Notes under the pieces: model-generated
Seen by the model: the letters and a program-made list of their open reading frames with translations, nothing else
Databases searched by the model: none
What the model was told of the DNA's origin: nothing
In this document: positions 16,360 through 31,934 of the stretch, one piece after another
How the letters are laid out: each line of letters opens with the position of its first letter
Position numbering within the stretch: the stretch's first letter is position 1
Assembly (NCBI GenBank): GCA_033580375.1
Contig: GCA_033580375.1_4527.1
Reading direction: 5' to 3' (one strand)
From: a phage
DNA length: 64,000 nucleotides
Program-made: the position numbers and the translations under genes

Positions 16360-17351
16360 TATTGAACCTTATTAATATAAGTTAACAGCTCTTTAGTTTG
16401 TTCCCAACTGATGCACGCATCGGTAACGGAAACGCCATAGGACATATTATCAGAAATTTTTTGATTTCCTTCATGTAGGAACGATTCTATCATAATTCCT
16501 TTGACCAAATCATTAGCTGCTAAATTTTTACCAATACCAATTTGATTGCTATAATGCCCTTCAGCGTTTGCATGGCTACAGTCAACCATTACATAATGAT
16601 TCAGACCTACTGCCCTTGCTTTGTTAGAAGCTTCTTGAATATCAGAAGAATGATAGTTCGGGCCGTTGGTCCCGCCACGCAATACGATATGCGTATTCTG
16701 ATTACCTTCAGCTTCAACAATGCCTACAGTACCATCGACGTCCATACCCATATACCGATGAGGCCAGGCGGCACTATACATCGCGTCTGTAGCTACTTTA
16801 ATAGAACCATTGGTTGCGTTCTTGAAGCCTACGCACATCGGTAGACCTGAAGCAATTTCACGATGTGTCTGACTTTCAGTCGTACGGGCGCCAATAGCAA
16901 CCCATGAGAAAATACCAGAAAGATACTTAATCGTGAATGGGTCTAATACTTCAGTTGCTAATGGAAGTCCCATACGTAGAAGTTTACGACACAATGTTCG
17001 TGCAACTATAAGACCGTGGTTCATATCAAAACTTCCGTCAAGATATGGATCATTTACAAGACCTTTCCAACCTACGGTAGTTCGAGGCTTTTCAAAATAA
17101 ACGCGCATCACTAACAGAACATTAGGAAGACGAGTTTGAAGTTCAGCCAGACGTTTGCCGTATTCAACAGCAGCAATAGGGTCATGAATTGAACAAGGAC
17201 CTACAACAATAAGTTTGCGTGGGTCTTCACCGTTCATAATCGAATTAACTTGTTCGCGATGAGAAGCCACTTGTGATGCGTAAGCTTCCGACAAAGGAAT
17301 AATCTCAGCCAGTTCTTTTGGAGAAATAAGTTTTCCGACGACAGGTAACAT
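16359..17351 (-). CDS. class I DAHP synthase (3-deoxy-7-phosphoheptulonate synthase, AroG/F/H-type)
   Basis: Signature blocks KPRTTVGWKGL, GARTTESQ, HREIASGL; metal ligands in GPCSIH, DCSHAN, HEGNQ and VTDACI all present; ATG with SD AAGGA. Confidence 0.85.
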   Translation of the reverse strand: MLPVVGKLISPKELAEIIPLSEAYASQVASHREQVNSIMNGEDPRKLIVVGPCSIHDPIAAVEYGKRLAELQTRLPNVLLVMRVYFEKPRTTVGWKGLVNDPYLDGSFDMNHGLIVARTLCRKLLRMGLPLATEVLDPFTIKYLSGIFSWVAIGARTTESQTHREIASGLPMCVGFKNATNGSIKVATDAMYSAAWPHRYMGMDVDGTVGIVEAEGNQNTHIVLRGGTNGPNYHSSDIQEASNKARAVGLNHYVMVDCSHANAEGHYSNQIGIGKNLAANDLVKGIMIESFLHEGNQKISDNMSYGVSVTDACISWEQTKELLTYINKVQ

Positions 17352-17471
17352 AACAATCCTTAGGAGATATAAACAGATTCTGATTCAACAATACCTTTAC
17401 CCGGATTAGACAGGCTAAGTTGGTAGTGCTCAGATTTATGACCATTCTCTATAGTAATGAGATAGCTCTCA

Positions 17472-22915: not shown

Positions 22916-24091
22916 TTAGAAATATTTTTTGTATGAATTGATTACATTTTGGTCTACATCATTATCAATTTGTGCAACAAGATAAGAACTGATTTCAACT
23001 TCCTGAGGAGCTGCTTGAACTAAATCAGAGTTCAGATATTCACGAATCCAAGGATACGGATGTTTGGTCGGAGCATCAGTAATTGGACACGGCAAACCAC
23101 ACTGTTTCATACGAGACACAGTCAAGTAATCAACAAAAGCACACATACTCTGTGTATTGATACCTGGACATGTACCGTCTTTAAAGAGGTGCGCAGCCCA
23201 TTCCTTCTCTTGACTATTTACTTCCATAAAAATGTCAACTGCTTCTTGTTCACATTCTTTAGCAATTTGAACCCACTCATCGCCGTCAGTACCAGATTGA
23301 AGTTGACGGATAATGTACTGAGTACCCTTAAGGTGGAGTTGTTCGTCACGAGCAATGAACTTCATAATCTTTGCATTGCCTTCCATAATTTCCATATTTT
23401 TATGGAAGTTGAAAGTACATGCAAATGATACGTAAAAACGAATAGCTTCTAAGGCGTTGATAACGTGCAAACAGAGATAAAGAGATTTCATTAGCTCACG
23501 CTTGGCGTTAAACATTATTTCTTCGTACATCTCAATATCATTCTGCTGGCATGAGCCTAGTGAATACTCATAATTTTCCTTAGCATTTTCCCAATGGCGA
23601 GTCTTGATTAGAACATCATCATAATATTTACCTATTGATTCAGCTCGTTTCATGATTGCTTCGTCTAATACAATTTCATCAAATACCTTAGATGGATCGG
23701 TATAAAGATTTCGCATAATATGAGTATATGAACGAGAGTGAATAGTTTCACTGAATGTCCATGTTGCAACCCATGTATCTAATGAAGGGTCAGAAATAAG
23801 TGCCATAAGTACCGCAGATGGGGCCCTGCCTTGTATAGAATCTAATAATGATTGATACTTAAGATTGTTTGTAAAGATGTCCTGTTGGAACTGAGGAAGC
23901 TTATTGAACTGCGCAGAGTCCAACATCAAGTTTACCTCTTCTGGGCGCCAAAAAAATGAGAGAGATTTTTCAGTAAGGTCTTCAAAAACTTTATGACGTT
24001 GGATATCGTAACGTGCAATGCCTAAACCAGAACCAAAAAACATCGGTTCATTTAAAACATCAACTTGTTGGGTGTTAAAAACTGTGCTCAT
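22916..24091 (-). CDS. nrdB: ribonucleotide reductase small subunit (uninterrupted, no intron)
   Basis: 391-aa continuous ORF with class Ia R2 features; no group I intron. Confidence 0.9.
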   Translation of the reverse strand: MSTVFNTQQVDVLNEPMFFGSGLGIARYDIQRHKVFEDLTEKSLSFFWRPEEVNLMLDSAQFNKLPQFQQDIFTNNLKYQSLLDSIQGRAPSAVLMALISDPSLDTWVATWTFSETIHSRSYTHIMRNLYTDPSKVFDEIVLDEAIMKRAESIGKYYDDVLIKTRHWENAKENYEYSLGSCQQNDIEMYEEIMFNAKRELMKSLYLCLHVINALEAIRFYVSFACTFNFHKNMEIMEGNAKIMKFIARDEQLHLKGTQYIIRQLQSGTDGDEWVQIAKECEQEAVDIFMEVNSQEKEWAAHLFKDGTCPGINTQSMCAFVDYLTVSRMKQCGLPCPITDAPTKHPYPWIREYLNSDLVQAAPQEVEISSYLVAQIDNDVDQNVINSYKKYF

Positions 24092-24729
24092 TTAAAATCC
24101 TTAAATTTACATTTATCATAATGCCATCTTAAAGCATTACCCTTATTAACTTTCTTGCCACAATGTGGACATGGCGGATATTCAGTACCAGATTTAGTCT
24201 TTTCAGATATTAACAATTTTGTTTTATCTGTATGTGGTACACCTCTTGTTGGAGATATTGTACCATACATAGGATTAAGCACACCAAGTTTAGACTTTGA
24301 TATATTTTCACAGTGTTCTTTAGATTTAGGCTTTCTCATCCGTTGGATATGTAAATCTGTAAATTGTCGTCCTTTCAAAGCTTCGCTGATTTTAGCTTTG
24401 GTTTCCTCAGACATTTCACGTCCAGTCATAGCCTCTGATAGAAGTTTCTTGCCTAATTCGTATAGCCTAGAAGAAACGTTATAATTTCTCCCTTTATTGG
24501 TCAAACACATCATACCAAAGGCTTGTTTAAGACCAGGATAAGAATTGAATTTGGTTAATAATCTATGAGCTAAAAAGTGTTCACGACCAGTTAAATCCAC
24601 AAGGTTTTCAACATCATTGGTTCCTCCTAAACATTTAGGAATTATATGATGAGTCTCTTTATATTCGGATAAAGGTTCCCGAGCCTTCGCCCGGGAAATT
24701 AGGTCATTATAGATTTTTTGATAATTCAT
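24088..24729 (-). CDS. mobE: free-standing HNH homing endonuclease (MobE-like)
   Basis: HNH motif HHIIPKCLGGTNDVENLVDLTGREHFLAH plus C-terminal CPHCGK zinc motif; wedged between nrdA and nrdB with overlapping stop/start codons. Confidence 0.75.
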   Translation of the reverse strand: MNYQKIYNDLISRAKAREPLSEYKETHHIIPKCLGGTNDVENLVDLTGREHFLAHRLLTKFNSYPGLKQAFGMMCLTNKGRNYNVSSRLYELGKKLLSEAMTGREMSEETKAKISEALKGRQFTDLHIQRMRKPKSKEHCENISKSKLGVLNPMYGTISPTRGVPHTDKTKLLISEKTKSGTEYPPCPHCGKKVNKGNALRWHYDKCKFKDFK

Positions 24730-26984
24730 TACAATTTACACGCAGAGCAATCTTCGGCTTTAGGTGTTTCTAATTCATAGTCATCTGTACCTGACCCATC
24801 ACGAGTGTTATGATAGTAGAGGTTTTTTCCGCCAAAGTACCAGAAGTAAAGCAGATCGTCAAGCATTACTGACATTGGCACTTTACCTTTCTCAAATACT
24901 GTCGGGTCATAGTAAGTATTAGCAGAAGCAGATTGGCACACCCATTTCAACATGATAGCAACTTGGGTCAAATAAGGTTTATTACCTTTCTTAGCAAGTT
25001 TCCACGCGTAGTCGTAAAGACTCATGTTATGTTCGATATTAGGAACAACCTGACGGAAGTTGCCTTCTTTAGATTCTTTAATACTTACAGGTCCACGAGG
25101 TGGTTCTATACCGTTTGTGCTATTTGAGACTTGACTGCTTGATTCGCATGGCATGAGAGCACTAAGTGTACTGTTACGAATTCCGTGTTCTTTGAGTTCA
25201 GCTCGAAGTTCTTCCCAGTCACAGACGTAGTTCGGAGCTGCGATTTGGTCAATCTTTTTATTGTACCAGTCGATAGGTAATTCGCCTCTAGACCATTTAG
25301 TGTCTGAATAATACTCACAAGGTCCTTTTTCTTTGGCGAGCTTGATTGAAGCTTTGATAAGGCCATATTGTAATCTCTCGAACAATTCATGAGTCAAATC
25401 GTTAGCGTCTTCATATGAAGCAAAGTTAGAAGCTAACCATGCGGCATAGTTCGTCACACCAACACCGAGATTTCGACGCTTTTTAGCTTTTAAAGCTTCT
25501 GGAACCGGATAATCTTGATAGTCTAACAGGTTATCAAGTGCACGTACTTGTACTTCAGCAAGTTCATTAATTTTATCTTGGTCTTGCCAATCAAATTTAT
25601 CTAATACAAAAGCAGATAACGTGCATAAACCAATTTCAGCATCAGGACCATTCACATCATTAGTTGGAATAGCGATTTCACAACATAAGTTACTCTGACG
25701 AATTGGAGCTTTTTCACGAATAAATGGAGTGTAGTTGTTCGTGTTATCAACAAACTGTGGATAAATTCGAGCAGTACCAGAACGTTCAGTCATGAACAAT
25801 TCAAAGAGTTCTAGTGCTTTGATTCTTTTCTTTCTGATTGTTGGGTCTTTTTCAGCTTTCTCATAAAGCTCACGGAATTTATCTTGATCTTCAAAGAATG
25901 AGTAATATAGTTCGCCTGACATTTCGTGAGGGCTAAATAAAGTAATATAATCATTTTTACCAAGGCGTTCCATCATAAGGTCATTAATCTGAATTCCGTA
26001 GTCCATATGTCGAATACGGTTTTCATCCACGCCTTTGTTATTTTTCAGAACTAATAGGTTCTCTACTTCTAAGTGCCACATTGGATAATACGCTGTAGCA
26101 GCACCACCACGAATACCACCTTGAGAACAAGATTTTACTGCAGTTTGGAAATGTTTCCAGAATGGAATAACACCCGTATGTCGAACTTCACCCATACCGA
26201 TCTTAGAACCTTCTGCACGAAGCATACCAACGTTGATACCGATACCAGCTCGTTTAGAAATATATTCAATAATTGATGCTGAAGTTTTGTTAATAGATTT
26301 TAACGAATCGCCGGCTTCAATAACTACACAACTAGAGAACTGGCGAGTTGGAGTACGAGCACCTGCCATAATTGGGGTAGGCAATGAAACTTGATGAGTA
26401 GAAACAGCATCATAAAAACGAATAATATGTTTCAAACGGTCATGAGTTTCGTCTTGATGTAAGGCCATACCAATAGCCATGATAGCAAACTGTGGAGTTT
26501 CATAAATCTTCCCAGTTGTTTTATCTTTAACCAGGTATTTTTCTTTAAGCTGCATAGCACCAGCATAAGTCAGATCAAAATCTCGTTCATGTTTAATCTG
26601 AGAATCGAGATAAATGATTTCTTCTGCAGAATATCTAGACAACAACTCAGGGTCGTATTTGCCTTCATTAACACAATACGAGATATGGTCGATAAAAGCA
26701 GGAGGTTCAAACTGTCCGTACACATCTTTACGAAGTGCAAACATTAATCCTTTAGCGGCAACATATTGATAATCAGGTTCTTCGACAGAAATCGAGTTGG
26801 CTGCAACTTTAATACAAATCTTCTGAATATCTTTAGTGCTCATCCCGTCAACAAGATGGGTCTTAATTTCTTCGTACAATTCATATGGGTCGATTTGTGT
26901 TCCTTCACATTGCCAAGTTAATACTTGAATAATTTTCTGTGCATCAAAATTTTGGGATACCCCACTGCTCTTAGTTACTTGCAT
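24729..26984 (-). CDS. nrdA: ribonucleotide reductase large subunit
   Basis: 751-aa ORF with class I R1 active-site motif NLCCEI and C-terminal CSACKL; SD GAGGA. Confidence 0.9.
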   Translation of the reverse strand: MQVTKSSGVSQNFDAQKIIQVLTWQCEGTQIDPYELYEEIKTHLVDGMSTKDIQKICIKVAANSISVEEPDYQYVAAKGLMFALRKDVYGQFEPPAFIDHISYCVNEGKYDPELLSRYSAEEIIYLDSQIKHERDFDLTYAGAMQLKEKYLVKDKTTGKIYETPQFAIMAIGMALHQDETHDRLKHIIRFYDAVSTHQVSLPTPIMAGARTPTRQFSSCVVIEAGDSLKSINKTSASIIEYISKRAGIGINVGMLRAEGSKIGMGEVRHTGVIPFWKHFQTAVKSCSQGGIRGGAATAYYPMWHLEVENLLVLKNNKGVDENRIRHMDYGIQINDLMMERLGKNDYITLFSPHEMSGELYYSFFEDQDKFRELYEKAEKDPTIRKKRIKALELFELFMTERSGTARIYPQFVDNTNNYTPFIREKAPIRQSNLCCEIAIPTNDVNGPDAEIGLCTLSAFVLDKFDWQDQDKINELAEVQVRALDNLLDYQDYPVPEALKAKKRRNLGVGVTNYAAWLASNFASYEDANDLTHELFERLQYGLIKASIKLAKEKGPCEYYSDTKWSRGELPIDWYNKKIDQIAAPNYVCDWEELRAELKEHGIRNSTLSALMPCESSSQVSNSTNGIEPPRGPVSIKESKEGNFRQVVPNIEHNMSLYDYAWKLAKKGNKPYLTQVAIMLKWVCQSASANTYYDPTVFEKGKVPMSVMLDDLLYFWYFGGKNLYYHNTRDGSGTDDYELETPKAEDCSACKL

Positions 26985-27327: not shown

Positions 27328-28188
27328 TTATACCGCCATTTTAGCTTTGATAGCTGGATGTGATTCGTAATTTTTAAGAACGAAATCAGAATGTGTCATC
27401 GTTCCAGTAACCCAGTCCATTTGGATTTTTGTAGGCCAATTCTCAAAATTACCAGGCCAATTAATTTCAAGAGAACACAACTCTTTAGGTTCACGACGAA
27501 GAACTTCTTTGCATTGCTCTACGTGGTTGCTGTAGATATGCGTATTGCCGCCTGAGAATACTAAATCACCCGGGATAAGATTACACATCTTAGCCACAAT
27601 ATGCGTCAAGGCAGCGTACGAGGCAATGTTGAACGGCAAGCCCAAGAAAACATCAACACTTCTCTGATACCATTGTAAATCAAGATGTCCATTACGCACA
27701 TTGAACTGATAGAACATGTGGCAAGGAGGAAGAGCCATTTGATTTATTTCAGCTGGATTCCAGGCAGAAACAATTTGACGACGATCAGTTGGTAATTTTT
27801 TAATACGGTCGATTGTTTCAACTAATTGGTCCACACCACCGAAATCACGCCATTGTTTACCATATATAGGACCAAGTTCACCACTATGATAACCAAGGTC
27901 TTTTGCCTGATTTTCGTAATTATCGTCCCAAATAGTTTTACCTTCAATTAGACTACCATGAGTACGAAGTCGTAATTCATTAACATTAGTAGAACCAGAC
28001 ATGAACCATAGTAACTCGGCAATACAAGCTTTCCATGCTAATTTCTTAGTTGTTACTGCAGGGAATCCTTTAGTCAGATCCCAACGTAATTTAGTTCCGA
28101 ATAGGGCAATAGTGCCTGTGCCTGTACGGTCGTCTGTTTCGTAGCCATTTTCAAAAATGTCTTTAATTAAATCTTGGTATTGTTTCAT
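27328..28188 (-). CDS. td: thymidylate synthase (uninterrupted, no intron)
   Basis: 286-aa continuous ORF with active-site PPCH motif; same length as spliced T4 Td. Confidence 0.9.
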   Translation of the reverse strand: MKQYQDLIKDIFENGYETDDRTGTGTIALFGTKLRWDLTKGFPAVTTKKLAWKACIAELLWFMSGSTNVNELRLRTHGSLIEGKTIWDDNYENQAKDLGYHSGELGPIYGKQWRDFGGVDQLVETIDRIKKLPTDRRQIVSAWNPAEINQMALPPCHMFYQFNVRNGHLDLQWYQRSVDVFLGLPFNIASYAALTHIVAKMCNLIPGDLVFSGGNTHIYSNHVEQCKEVLRREPKELCSLEINWPGNFENWPTKIQMDWVTGTMTHSDFVLKNYESHPAIKAKMAV

Positions 28189-28233
28189 TTAGTACCTTAT
28201 ATAAATTATAATACATTTTATGAAGCTAAATAA

Positions 28234-28593
28234 TCAATACAGTTTAGCATCAAATTTTCTTTCGATTTCAGGAGTGAAATATAATTCTTTACCACGTTTA
28301 GAAAAGCGACCAATAATATGATAATTATTCTCATCAAATGTGATATTGCCAATATCCGTAGCTTTCAACCAAATATCGATATTTCTATCCAGCTTTATGT
28401 CAAAATTCCAATACGGAGAACTATTACCGAAAATACTACAAGCGGATTCAGTGAAACAACTGCTATAAATCTTGTCTTTAGGAACTACTAATTGATAGAC
28501 GCCTTTAATAAACTGGGGACCCTGCCACTTTGGCTGTTTCTCATCTTTTTCTAATAGAATAGGGTAATAATTAAAGTTCATATTTTCCGCCAC
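28234..28593 (-). CDS. hypothetical protein (inserted between frd and td)
   Basis: 119-aa ORF in an interval that in T4 holds no gene. Confidence 0.5.
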   Translation of the reverse strand: MAENMNFNYYPILLEKDEKQPKWQGPQFIKGVYQLVVPKDKIYSSCFTESACSIFGNSSPYWNFDIKLDRNIDIWLKATDIGNITFDENNYHIIGRFSKRGKELYFTPEIERKFDAKLY

Positions 28594-28601
28594 GCGTTAT
28601 T

Positions 28602-29431
<830 letters not shown>

Positions 29432-29441
29432 ATTATTTTCC

Positions 29442-29699
29442 TTAAACAGACTTTTTCACAATTTTCCAATCAGCTTTAAACGATTCAACGTCAGAGTGGT
29501 GAATCCAGAATCCTGCACTTTCGCCGTCTTCGTAGAGTGGACATCCGTCACATTCTTCGTTCCAACCCATTTCACGTAAAGCTTCTTCAGCTTGTTCAAG
29601 TAGTTCAGCATCTTTACCAACGACGTTGAAGTACCATTTACCTTTAACTTCAGAATCTTTGATGCTCTGACGTTGTAATCTCATTTTATTCTCCTTCAC
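29442..29699 (-). CDS. hypothetical protein
   Basis: 85-aa ORF. Confidence 0.5.
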   Translation of the reverse strand: MKENKMRLQRQSIKDSEVKGKWYFNVVGKDAELLEQAEEALREMGWNEECDGCPLYEDGESAGFWIHHSDVESFKADWKIVKKSV

Positions 29700-30252: not shown

Positions 30253-31155
30253 TTATAGACCAGCTAACAGGTCATCGAGGTCGCCATCATCAGAGGATGA
30301 GGTAGAGCTCATGAAGTCATCTTCAGTTTTTGCAGAACTAAAGGCTTCCATGTCTTTATCAAAATCGTCAAGGTCAGAAGCAACTTTATCTGCAACAGAA
30401 GCTGCTGCGGCTGCTGCACCACCAAGAGCGGCAGTACCAAGAACCTTAGCGAAAGATTCATTTAATTTTTCAAAAGATTTGAACTGGTCTTTAGCCGTCA
30501 AAGTAGTAAGGTCTACCATCTGGTCATACAGTTCTTTCTGGAATGCTTCGTCATTAATACGAGGAATTTCAGATTGACCCAAGAATTTAGATTCGTCATA
30601 GTTGCTAAAACCGGAAACCTGCTTAGCTTTCAGAACGAAGTTAGCACCTTCAAACGGACAAGTAACATCAACTGGAGTTTCACCCATTTCGGTATCAACT
30701 GCAATCATTGCATTGATTTTGTCCCAAATCTTTTTACCGAAACGATATTTAAATACTTTACCTTCGTTATCTGGAGCTTGAGGGTCTTTAACAACCAGAA
30801 TATTAGCCCAATAAGAAGTTTTACGTTTCAGTTGAGAATATTCAGTTTTGTTGGTATTGTACAGGTCATTTTTACTAATGTACTGACATACAGGACAAGA
30901 GTCGTAATCACCGTGTGTAGAAGAGCAATTTTCAATATACCATTTACCATTTTTCTTGAAACCGTGGTTAACAAGAATTGCAAATGGTAGTGCATCATCA
31001 GTTTTTGCTGGCAAGAAACGAATTACCGCTTGACCATTACCTGATGCATCTAGCTTCAGCTTCCATTCGCCTTTATCTTCTGAAGAGAAACCTTTGTTAC
31101 CGTTCAGTTTAGCCATTTGAGCAGCGAGGTCAGCAGTAGATTTACGTTTAAACAT
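30253..31155 (-). CDS. 32: single-stranded DNA-binding protein gp32
   Basis: 300-aa ORF (T4 gp32 is 301 aa), zinc-binding Cys/His cluster, acidic C-terminal tail. Confidence 0.9.
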
Positions 31156-31280: not shown

Positions 31281-31934
31281 TTAATACTTACATGATTTGA
31301 TTGTTTCTATGAACAATTTCTTAGCAGCATTTCCATCGATTTGAAGTATTTTTCGATATGCCTTTAATTTGGTAGAATAATTTTGCCAGACTAAATTGTC
31401 GGTAAGTTCGTCATGCTTATCTATAATATTCAAGAATGAATCCAACAACAAGAAGGTTTCAAATGAAATTATATTGCTTTGTAGCAATTTAAATATGTAG
31501 CTCGACTGAACTTTATTATTATAATCAAATATCTCTTGAAGCGCACTAACTTCCACCTTCTTACTGAAATAGTAGATGTTACGTACATCTTCAGCAAACG
31601 TCTCCTTGGCCTGTTTGAGACGTCCAATATATTCCCTATAGAAAACTAATGCATCAGCGTCTGAGATCTCACCAATCCATGCATCTTGGTTAGCAACTAA
31701 GTTACTGATGAATATCAAAGTGAGTTCCTTTAACTTATATTTCTCTGATAGTTTCTCAAAGAAATATTTATCTCGGCGTTTTTGATACGCATTATCCGAA
31801 ACACGCATGCACCAGTTATATTTGATTACGTCATACCGACCATTAAAATGTTGTTTGCACATCAAGTATAGTTTGTATACCGATTTTCCATTAATATAAC
31901 GTTCTCCATCAGGAGGCATGCGTATTTTAATCAT
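31281..31934 (-). CDS. 59: helicase loader gp59
   Basis: 217-aa ORF (same as T4 gp59), synteny 32-59-33. Confidence 0.85.
   Translation of the reverse strand: MIKIRMPPDGERYINGKSVYKLYLMCKQHFNGRYDVIKYNWCMRVSDNAYQKRRDKYFFEKLSEKYKLKELTLIFISNLVANQDAWIGEISDADALVFYREYIGRLKQAKETFAEDVRNIYYFSKKVEVSALQEIFDYNNKVQSSYIFKLLQSNIISFETFLLLDSFLNIIDKHDELTDNLVWQNYSTKLKAYRKILQIDGNAAKKLFIETIKSCKY

Follow-up and report, generated by a model that had tools for sequence, protein, structure and literature searches.

Identity and position of the open reading frame between nrdA and nrdB

In the phage DNA analysed here, a 64-kb stretch referred to below as the window, an open reading frame is wedged between nrdA and nrdB. 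This raises the question of whether it is a working mobile endonuclease, how it came to be there and which sequence it acts upon. The preliminary description of this DNA had reported an HNH reading frame with overlapping stop and start codons at both of its ends, in the position held by mobE in T4. Both observations were borne out by the gene borders listed below, the nrdA-X-nrdB arrangement being that of T4 and T6. The description was silent on the strand; the gene lies on the minus strand.

24088..24729, minus strand: mobE coding sequence, 213 aa, ATG start (ORF list)
24729..26984, minus strand: nrdA, the upstream gene, 751 aa; mobE is presumably transcribed from the nrdA promoters
22916..24091, minus strand: nrdB, the target gene, 391 aa, a continuous, intron-free ORF
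24726..24731, minus strand: TAATGA overlap of nrdA stop and mobE start, read from the sequence; possible translational coupling
24088..24091, minus strand: ATGA overlap of mobE stop and nrdB start, read from the sequence; alike in T4 and T6

At the upstream border, the nrdA TAA (24731..24729) and the mobE ATG (24729..24727) have one base in common, which yields TAATGA; the same overlap is present in T4, T6 and mogra, and the UAAUGA arrangement has been described for T4 (PMC2988022). At the downstream border, the mobE TGA (24090..24088) overlaps the nrdB ATG (24091..24089) to give ATGA. The order nrdA-mobE-nrdB on one strand was also found in T4, T6 and the loci L093-L095.

The encoded protein matched PHROG 655, 'homing endonuclease', with E=7.7e-63, and was 100% identical in amino acid sequence to the LF82-1 'homing endonuclease'. 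The sequence comparison to MobE that had been proposed earlier gave full-length, collinear alignments covering 100% of the query, with 74.6% aa identity to T6 MobE and 60.8% to the 232-aa ORF at the mobE position of T4; the T6 gene between nrdA and nrdB carries the annotation mobE. No meaningful match, I-HmuI included, was obtained when the PDB sequences were searched with the MobE protein; in structure searches, its AlphaFold model matched neither I-HmuI nor another nuclease at a significant level, and an NCBIfam search returned sub-threshold matches only. Judged by these alignments, the ORF is a MobE ortholog, a free-standing HNH homing endonuclease of T-even-type phages, and the gene in the window phage should carry the name mobE. 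The MobE gene is already known, its location, mode of regulation and target in nrdB having been published in 2009, and an identical protein is present in GenBank.

Domain content and intactness of MobE

Three domains were recognized in the protein.

24565..24651, minus strand: HNH catalytic motif, residues 27-55 (Pfam HNH; H27, H28, N42, H51, H55)
24370..24423, minus strand: NUMOD3 DNA-binding repeat, residues 103-120 (Pfam)
24109..24171, minus strand: C-terminal CCHC zinc finger, C187-x2-C190-x12-H203-x3-C207, classical spacing

The HNH motif (MobE residues 27-55) reads HHIIPKCLGGTNDVENLVDLTGREHFLAH and scored 23.5 bits against Pfam HNH (cut-off 21.4), while NUMOD3 scored 37.4 bits (cut-off 20.4). 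The finger, which bears a weak resemblance to C2H2/C2HC fingers, has its four ligands (C187, C190, H203 and C207) invariant among 51 homologs. A canonical HNH motif together with a C-terminal zinc motif, as initially reported, is thus confirmed. The loss of catalytic residues had been named as an observation that would speak against an active enzyme; none is lost, H27, H28, N42, H51 and H55 all being invariant in the same 51 homologs. In T4 MobE, deletion of residues 33-62 abolishes nicking (PMC2790892), and the HNH motif of the window protein overlaps this stretch.

Values of dN/dS for mobE were 0.12 (against an allele with 93% aa identity), 0.16 and, against T6, 0.20; they were similar across the three protein regions, with 0.08-0.23 for the HNH part, 0.17-0.18 for the central part and 0.07-0.17 for the C-terminal one. 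Since the catalytic and zinc-binding residues are conserved and dN/dS is 0.12-0.20, mobE is not a decayed remnant. The dN/dS values and the invariant residues rule out reading it as a pseudogene, and by the same measures the gene is under purifying selection, intact and functional-looking, with a presumed nuclease activity.

Introns and other endonuclease genes in the window

The preliminary description had further stated that td and nrdB lack introns, that no seg gene lies between genes 32 and 59, and that this phage keeps a single mobile endonuclease.

27328..28188: td, 286 aa, a continuous ORF
30253..31155: gene 32
31281..31934: gene 59, separated from gene 32 by a 125-nt spacer

The first two statements agree with our data: td (286 aa) and nrdB (391 aa) are uninterrupted, an Rfam search over the whole window returned no family at gathering score, group I introns included, and the 125-nt spacer is free of ORFs. 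When the ORFs of the window were compared with MobE, I-TevI, I-TevIII-like and DenA (GIY-YIG) seeds, no further homing-endonuclease match was found, and the presence of additional genes of this class was rejected for the window on this basis; the DenA seed matched only DenA, the conserved endonuclease II present in all relatives. The statement on a single mobile endonuclease therefore stands for the 64-kb window, in which the MobE, I-TevI and I-TevIII-like seeds brought up no other endonuclease-like ORF, and as a statement on the whole genome it reaches beyond that scope.

Putative regulatory sequences inside mobE

The mobE gene contains three sequences of possible regulatory function.

24676..24697, minus strand: hairpin with a 9-bp stem and a 4-nt loop, UUCCCGGGC-GAAG-GCUCGGGAA, then CCUUUAU; MFE fold -18.7 kcal/mol
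24257..24281, minus strand: middle-promoter-like site of the MotA type, TGCTTAA, 12 nt, TACAAT; ~160 nt upstream of the nrdB ATG
24130..24139, minus strand: a further match to the MotA box, TAATGCTTTA, lacking an evident -10 element; unchanged in T4 and T6

The hairpin stands in the same register as in T4 and T6, with one A-U pair changed to G-U and a different loop. As a putative terminator it corresponds to the weak one inside T4 mobE, the function of which was demonstrated by 3' RACE and RNase protection (PMC2790892). A simple terminator scan left the mobE hairpin unflagged because its T run is short, as would be expected of a terminator that has been described as weak.

In T4, the middle promoter of nrdB lies in the 3' part of mobE (PMC2790892), and the site at 24281..24257, which differs from T4 and T6 by one synonymous spacer base, is a candidate for the same role; the second MotA box, at 24139..24130, may be the counterpart instead. 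A pattern scan of the window for such sites yielded 12 matches, against 3.8 expected. A sigma-70-like match was also noted at 24734..24706; transcription from it would start downstream of the mobE AUG, and for this reason it could not express MobE. In T4, mobE and nrdA are transcribed together (PMC2790892).

The nrdB target site

The published nicks introduced by MobE fall at nt 122-126 of T2 nrdB (PMC2790892), and the corresponding part of nrdB in the window is as follows.

23936..23978, minus strand: MobE target region as it reads in this phage itself, nrdB nt 114-156, GAA AAA TCT CTC TCA, then FFWRPEE

A specific cleavage target in mobE-less relatives had been predicted in the preliminary description. 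Such a target has already been mapped for T4 MobE (PMC2790892), and its sequence occurs in ESh27, mobillu and phi25-307, which read GAA AAG CAA TTR TCG TTT TTY TGG and so closely resemble the validated T2 substrate. Around nrdB nt 114-131, T2, ESh27 and mobillu have GAA AAG CAR TTG TCN, and the window differs from them: its codons AAA TCT are T6-like, and the T2/ESh27-type target is absent from the window even with 3 mismatches allowed.

The association of the target allele with mobE is imperfect, some mobE-less phages carrying AAA alleles: NHEP36 and O157tp3 have AAA TCC TTG, and phiC120 has AAA CAA TTG. The published rule by which every mobE-less phage has AAG at codon 42 is thus not absolute. 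The nrdB alleles of NHEP36 and O157tp3, both mobE-less, look resistant. In RB69, the nick position itself coincides with what appears to be a -2/-1 compensating deletion in nrdB. When IMG/VR was scanned with exact patterns of the target alleles, the T2 type was matched at 5 loci and the window type at none, numbers too small for statistics; none of the 5 encodes a MobE relative, and both of those with a readable nrdA-nrdB junction have a ~55-bp spacer.

Borders of the mobE cassette

The window belongs to an RB69-like phage, a Mosigvirus. Most relatives of this phage are without mobE, and in RB69, ESh27, phiC120, NHEP36, O157tp3, phi25-307 and mobillu a spacer of ~55 bp separates nrdA from nrdB in its place. 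The window allele was found only in the window itself, in ten LF82-series records and in one Logan assembly; a protein scan of IMG/VR yielded no close relative of it, the best match reaching 39% over the full length. The T6-type copies listed sit in Tequatrovirus-type phages (T6, SHFML-26 and similar), and the window allele in Mosigvirus.

23943..24755: cassette or co-conversion tract, 99.7% identical to LF82-1 and Logan SRR35259238, delimited by mismatch maps and Fisher tests

LF82-1 and ESh27 served in this mapping as stand-ins for the true parents. Against LF82-1, 2 mismatches were counted in the 813 nt of the tract (24755..23943) and 137 in 1914 nt of its flanks (p=2.8e-19). Against the mobE-less ESh27, nrdB nt 1-141 contained 24 mismatches and nt 142-1176 only 3 (p=2.7e-20), which places the crossover in the window nrdB at nt 141-150; relative to the ESh27-like backbone, the foreign tract spans at least 23951-24741. 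The cassette of ~800 nt hence consists of the last ~13 nt of nrdA, mobE and the first ~141 nt of nrdB, and its right border lies 15-28 nt beyond the published nick site. An additional cassette, of the T4 type, was found in the Mosigvirus mogra, whose identity to T4 amounts to 98.7% for mobE, 100% for nrdB nt 1-128 and 78-82% for the flanks; the right border of this cassette lies at nrdB nt 128/129. The 98.7% identity of the mogra allele to T4 argues for transfer of mobE between genera. These two Mosigvirus alleles of mobE are unrelated, and their right junctions lie 2-28 nt from the T2 nick site; the right border of these sharply bounded cassettes abuts that site.

The cassette keeps 99.7% identity across three backbones with flanks that diverge by 3-10%, which implies that it spread recently. 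This bears on the view that mobE is an inactive or domesticated remnant, which would cut nothing and be kept for the nrdB promoter and translation signals it carries. The promoter-like site and the nrdB start overlap do lie within or at the end of mobE, and according to Wilson and Edgell the promoter embedded in the gene puts its deletion at a selective disadvantage (PMC2790892). Such a constraint would act on the 3' end only, whereas dN/dS is low in all three regions and every catalytic residue and zinc ligand is invariant; together with the recent spread, this leaves the view improbable.

The cassette could also have been moved by ordinary homologous recombination in co-infected cells, the endonuclease having no part in setting its borders. 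T4-like phages recombine at high frequency, and genomes that are mosaic elsewhere as well could have exchanged the mobE cassette in this way: divergent patches unrelated to mobE lie nearby in nrdA (25461-25623, against ESh27) and nrdB (23495-23610, against LF82-1). Against this stand the borders of two independent alleles (nt 128/129 and nt 141-150), both within about 30 nt of the nick in a gene of 1176 nt, and the 93% allele (L093), in which nrdB nt 1-141 diverge along with mobE and the flanks do not. We therefore give this explanation, too, only a small chance. Read along the sequence, the borders appear to show a recent arrival of mobE by the copy-and-paste route described for T4.

Proposed mechanism of MobE homing

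Taken together, these results make it very likely that the window carries mobE in an RB69-like genome, under T4-like regulation and homing into the nrdB of mobE-less relatives; its activity, the position of its cut and the immunity of the variant site are inferred. As in T4, mobE would have no promoter of its own and would be transcribed with nrdA, and its translation would probably be coupled through the TAATGA overlap. The weak hairpin terminator ~30 nt into the gene would lower MobE expression, and the middle promoter at its 3' end would restore transcription of nrdB. Upon co-infection with a mobE-less relative, the HNH domain would nick or cut the nrdB of that phage near codon 42 (nt 122-126), the conserved block beside the cut that codes for FFWRPEE being the presumed binding site of the NUMOD3 repeats and the CCHC finger. 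Through recombinational repair the recipient would then acquire mobE together with ~130-140 nt from the 5' end of nrdB and the final few codons of nrdA, and the nrdB of the window phage itself would presumably be spared by the variant sequence at its cut site. For T4 MobE, cleavage by the purified protein in vitro was never demonstrated, and action through another nuclease is considered possible by the authors (PMC2790892).

Hardly any weight is left for a different nrd-region endonuclease, either Hef, found in place of mobE in phage U5, or a free-standing I-TevIII: both target nrdB, and MobE and the 269-aa I-TevIII-like ORF of KAW3E185 both have an HNH N-terminus and a CCHC finger, but the likeness to this ORF is limited to 25 finger residues (E=5e-4) and a weak N-terminal match, against 61-75% full-length identity to MobE, and Hef, by its description in a review a 'unique endonuclease', has an entry apart from that of the HNH enzyme MobE. 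An identification of the gene as I-TevIII was rejected, nrdB being continuous (391 aa) without an Rfam intron, the ORF lying outside nrdB and full-length similarity being absent.

The value of these observations is modest and confirmatory, in that they support the MobE homing model in natural populations of a second genus, Mosigvirus: three backbones with one cassette and a fourth with a T4-derived one, their junctions lying beside the T4 x T2 nick site, constitute this support. More tentatively, and with the balance of our expectation against it, natural genomes may record MobE homing precisely enough for the cleavage site and escape from it to be mapped without biochemistry; MobE alleles and nrdB target variants would then be engaged in an arms race that is still under way, and the divergent central region of the 213-aa protein would possibly be tuned to Mosigvirus targets.

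Comparison with known systems

The closest functional reference is MobE of T4, with which the window gene shares its place between nrdA and nrdB, the TAATGA and ATGA overlaps, the HNH residues, nearly identical N-terminal 30 and C-terminal 30 residues, the register of the 5' hairpin, the 3' promoter-like site and a variant nrdB target in its own genome. The T4 protein is longer (232 against 213 aa), its 19 extra residues lying in the central NUMOD3/linker region; the hairpin of the window contains a G-U pair, its loop being GAAG, and the own-site allele is CGG CAG ATC in T4 and AAA TCT CTC in the window. Unlike T4, the window has no nrdB intron or I-TevIII downstream that could be mobilised in trans. 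MobE of the T6 type (T6, slur02/04, HY03, SHFML-26 and others) resembles the window protein in length (213 aa), in 73-75% aa identity, in position and in its own-site codons AAA TCT, while nucleotide identity is only 74-76%.

The mobE genes of mogra and KAW3E185 share with that of the window the Mosigvirus background, the insertion site and a cassette that includes the first ~128-141 nt of nrdB, but they are of the T4-type 232-aa allele, at 73% nucleotide identity to that of the window; in KAW3E185, moreover, a 269-aa ORF, which is only presumed to be I-TevIII, interrupts nrdB. I-TevIII of the RB3 nrdB intron is similar in its HNH N-terminus, its CCHC finger(s) and its nrdB target; it differs in being intron-encoded, in making a double-strand break and in having no full-length similarity to the window MobE. 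I-HmuI of Bacillus phage SPO1, proposed by Wilson and Edgell as a model for MobE (PMC2790892), has a comparable modular architecture of an HNH domain with an extended DNA-binding part and nicks in a strand-specific manner; it is intron-encoded, and it matched MobE neither in PDB sequence nor significantly in structure. Finally, the MobE of Aeh1 is likewise an HNH enzyme of the nrd region and bears the same name, but it is inserted within nrdA and splits that gene, whereas nrdA of the window is intact, with 751 aa.

Identity and integrity of the mobE gene

The preliminary description had placed a free-standing HNH endonuclease gene with a C-terminal zinc motif between nrdA and nrdB, overlapping both neighbours, and the present analysis bears this out.

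24729 to 24088, minus strand: mobE ORF, 213 aa (ORF list)

At its 5' end the ORF overlaps the 751-aa nrdA by one base (nrdA stop TAA and mobE start ATG, together TAATGA), and at its 3' end its stop TGA and the start ATG of the 391-aa nrdB run together as ATGA. Pfam recognised an HNH domain (23.5 bits; cut-off 21.4) and NUMOD3 (37.4 bits) in the product, and PHROG 655, 'homing endonuclease', matched residues 1-210 (E=7.7e-63). The HNH motif reported earlier corresponds to residues 27-55, and C187-x2-C190-x12-H203-x3-C207 at the C-terminus is spaced like a classical zinc finger; its four ligand residues, as well as H27, H28, N42, H51 and H55, were invariant across an alignment of 51 homologs. 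Comparison of a MobE AlphaFold model with known structures gave no significant match to I-HmuI or another nuclease.

The region is 96-98% identical to that of RB69-like phages of the genus Mosigvirus. In RB69, ESh27, phiC120, NHEP36, O157 typing phage 3, phi25-307 and mobillu, nrdA and nrdB are separated by a spacer of ca. 55 bp with no mobE ORF, whereas ten LF82-series records encode a protein 100% identical to that of the window, annotated 'homing endonuclease', and in mogra and KAW3E185 this position is taken by a different version of 232 aa. The T6 protein annotated MobE (213 aa) is 74.6% identical to the window product and the T4 ORF (232 aa) 60.8%; both genes are flanked by nrdA and nrdB and overlap them at either end in the same way. 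Relatives of 99%, 93% and 80% identity in metagenome assemblies all occur in an nrdA-X-nrdB context. This distribution and placement among relatives, together with the likeness to T6 and T4 and the shared overlaps, identify the ORF as mobE; both this type of gene and this particular sequence were known before.

One alternative is that the ORF is a remnant, kept merely for the promoter embedded in it. This is disfavoured by dN/dS values of 0.12 against the 93% allele, 0.16 against the 80% allele and 0.20 against T6, comparably low in all three thirds of the protein (HNH, middle, C-terminal), and by the conservation of all catalytic and metal-binding residues. The window thus holds an intact MobE ortholog, which by analogy would be an active nuclease cutting at the position mapped for the T4 enzyme.

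Borders of the cassette and signs of recent mobility

When compared to LF82-1, one of the LF82-series records, the window displays only 2 mismatches in 24755..23943 (813 nt), as against 137 in 1914 nt of flanking sequence (Fisher p=2.8e-19). Compared to the mobE-less ESh27, 24 mismatches fall in nrdB nt 1-141 and 3 in the remaining 1035 nt (p=2.7e-20), with 7 in the 3' 700 nt of nrdA. From this distribution, the window looks like an ESh27-like backbone that has received an LF82-type cassette, which runs from the final ∼13 nt of nrdA through mobE to nrdB nt 141. If LF82-1 and ESh27 are taken to represent the parents, the right-hand crossover is placed between nrdB nt 141 and 150, 15-28 nt past the published nick. 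The same cassette, at 99.7% identity, is present on a third backbone (Logan SRR35259238), and for the 93% allele mobE and nrdB nt 1-141 are divergent together, between flanks that are not.

A second, independent case is offered by mogra (L010, 3414-4263), in which mobE is 98.7% identical to that of T4, with 100% identity in the final 13 nt of nrdA as well as in nrdB nt 1-128. The flanks are only 78-82% identical, and identity falls to ∼80% after nrdB nt 128, so that junction and nick site are 2-6 nt apart. A T4-like cassette amid such flanks points to an apparent homing event from Tequatrovirus to Mosigvirus, i.e. a transfer between genera.

Such borders are what homing would predict, as DNA from the cut to the insertion point must be co-converted. 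They fall short of proof, since the parents are inferred and mosaic patches unrelated to mobE lie nearby: one in nrdA (25461-25623; 79-88% identity to ESh27 over ∼160 nt) and one in nrdB (23495-23610; 60-75% identity to LF82-1 along ∼110 nt that include an 8-nt indel), both surrounded by 97-100% identical sequence. We regard the junction analysis as a small confirmatory bonus.

Target site alleles in nrdB

The published nick maps to nt 122-126 of T2 nrdB, and mobE-containing phages are variant in sequence at this site (PMC2790892). Codons 41-48 of the window nrdB read GAA AAA TCT CTC TCA TTT TTT TGG, similar to T6 (GAG AAA TCT TTA TCA), as compared to GAA AAG CAG TTG TCA TTT TTC TGG in the T2 substrate; the mobE-less ESh27 and mobillu have GAA AAG CAA TTG TCG TTT TTC TGG, and phi25-307 is nearly identical to them. 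No T2-type target was found in the window with up to 3 mismatches allowed. By analogy, the variant site of the window would be immune to MobE.

Target allele and mobE presence do not correlate perfectly. Among mobE-less Mosigviruses, NHEP36 and O157 typing phage 3 carry a sequence like that of mobE-containing phages in codons 41-45 (AAA TCC TTG), and phiC120 has AAA CAA TTG; all three have AAA at codon 42, and the published rule of AAG at codon 42 in all mobE-less phages (PMC2790892) fails in this larger sample. In RB69, codons 41-44 (cf. window 23957-23969) read GAA ATC CTG TCA, versus GAA AAA TCC TTG TCA in NHEP36: a net loss of 3 nt precisely at the nick position reported for MobE, explainable as a -2 and a -1 deletion. 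This loss may have been left by repair or may represent an escape allele; the deviating alleles of all four phages may be resistant, may remain from partial conversion, or may simply reflect variation.

Other mobile genes and occupants of the nrd region

As stated earlier, neither td (286 aa) nor nrdB is interrupted by an intron in the ORF list, and there is no seg gene between 32 and 59, which only 125 nt separate. No Rfam family reached its gathering score across the 64-kb window. The claim of a single mobile endonuclease stands for the window only: a phmmer scan of all 238 window ORFs of at least 60 aa, seeded with MobE, I-TevI, an I-TevIII-like ORF and DenA, retrieved only mobE and denA themselves.

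Besides mobE, only three segments were specific to the window in the comparison with RB69 and LF82-1:

16363-17456, ∼1.1 kb: DAHP-synthase-like gene next to cd
28192-29446: replaced frd region, containing an additional 119-aa ORF
tail-fibre gene 37: a variable stretch

The first is missing in RB69; LF82-1 has it, with the gene annotated as phospho-2-dehydro-3-deoxyheptonate aldolase (DAHP synthase). Such an auxiliary metabolic gene is unusual beside cd. In the second, the frd (dihydrofolate reductase) allele has only 63-68% nt identity to RB69 and LF82-1, with flanks of ∼95%; td and frd overlap in RB69, whereas in the window the 119-aa ORF (28234..28593, minus strand; no Pfam match) lies between them. 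The frd region looks like another replaced cassette of the nucleotide-metabolism cluster.

In the Mosigvirus KAW3E185 (L011, 3055-3864), a 269-aa ORF lies inside the expected nrdB, for which no single CDS is annotated. In size and CCHC fingers the ORF agrees with full-length I-TevIII, so that this phage seems to combine mobE with an nrdB intron endonuclease. In two distant T4-like IMG/VR contigs (L097 and L098), which carry the T2-type target sequence, the nrdA-nrdB gap is filled by a ∼590-nt insert (L098 7129-7720) with a 76-aa ORF lacking MobE similarity, by sequence a different occupant of the mobE site.

Comparison with the regulation of T4 mobE

In T4, mobE lacks its own promoter and is transcribed together with nrdA, a hairpin that serves as a weak intrinsic terminator follows soon after its AUG, and the nrdB middle promoter sits in its 3' part; in T4 x T2 crosses mobE was inherited in excess, for which the HNH region was needed (Wilson and Edgell, PMC2790892). 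The UAAUGA overlap has been described, and translational coupling suggested, in a review (PMC2988022). Probable or candidate counterparts of these signals in the window are as follows:

24697..24676, minus strand: hairpin UUCCCGGGC-GAAG-GCUCGGGAA, then CCUUUAU (sequence and fold)
24281..24257, minus strand: candidate middle promoter TGCTTAA-12 nt-TACAAT (middle-promoter geometry)
24139..24130, minus strand: candidate second MotA box (motif match)

A sigma-70-like match, TTGTAA-17-TATAAT (10/12), spans the nrdA stop and the mobE start (24706-24734, minus strand); its -10 position reads TATAAC in T4, and a transcript from it would start past the mobE AUG, shortly before the hairpin. The TAATGA junction is the same as in T4. 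Compared to T4 and T6, the hairpin is in the same register, with one A-U pair changed to G-U and a different loop, and the candidate middle promoter differs by one spacer base.
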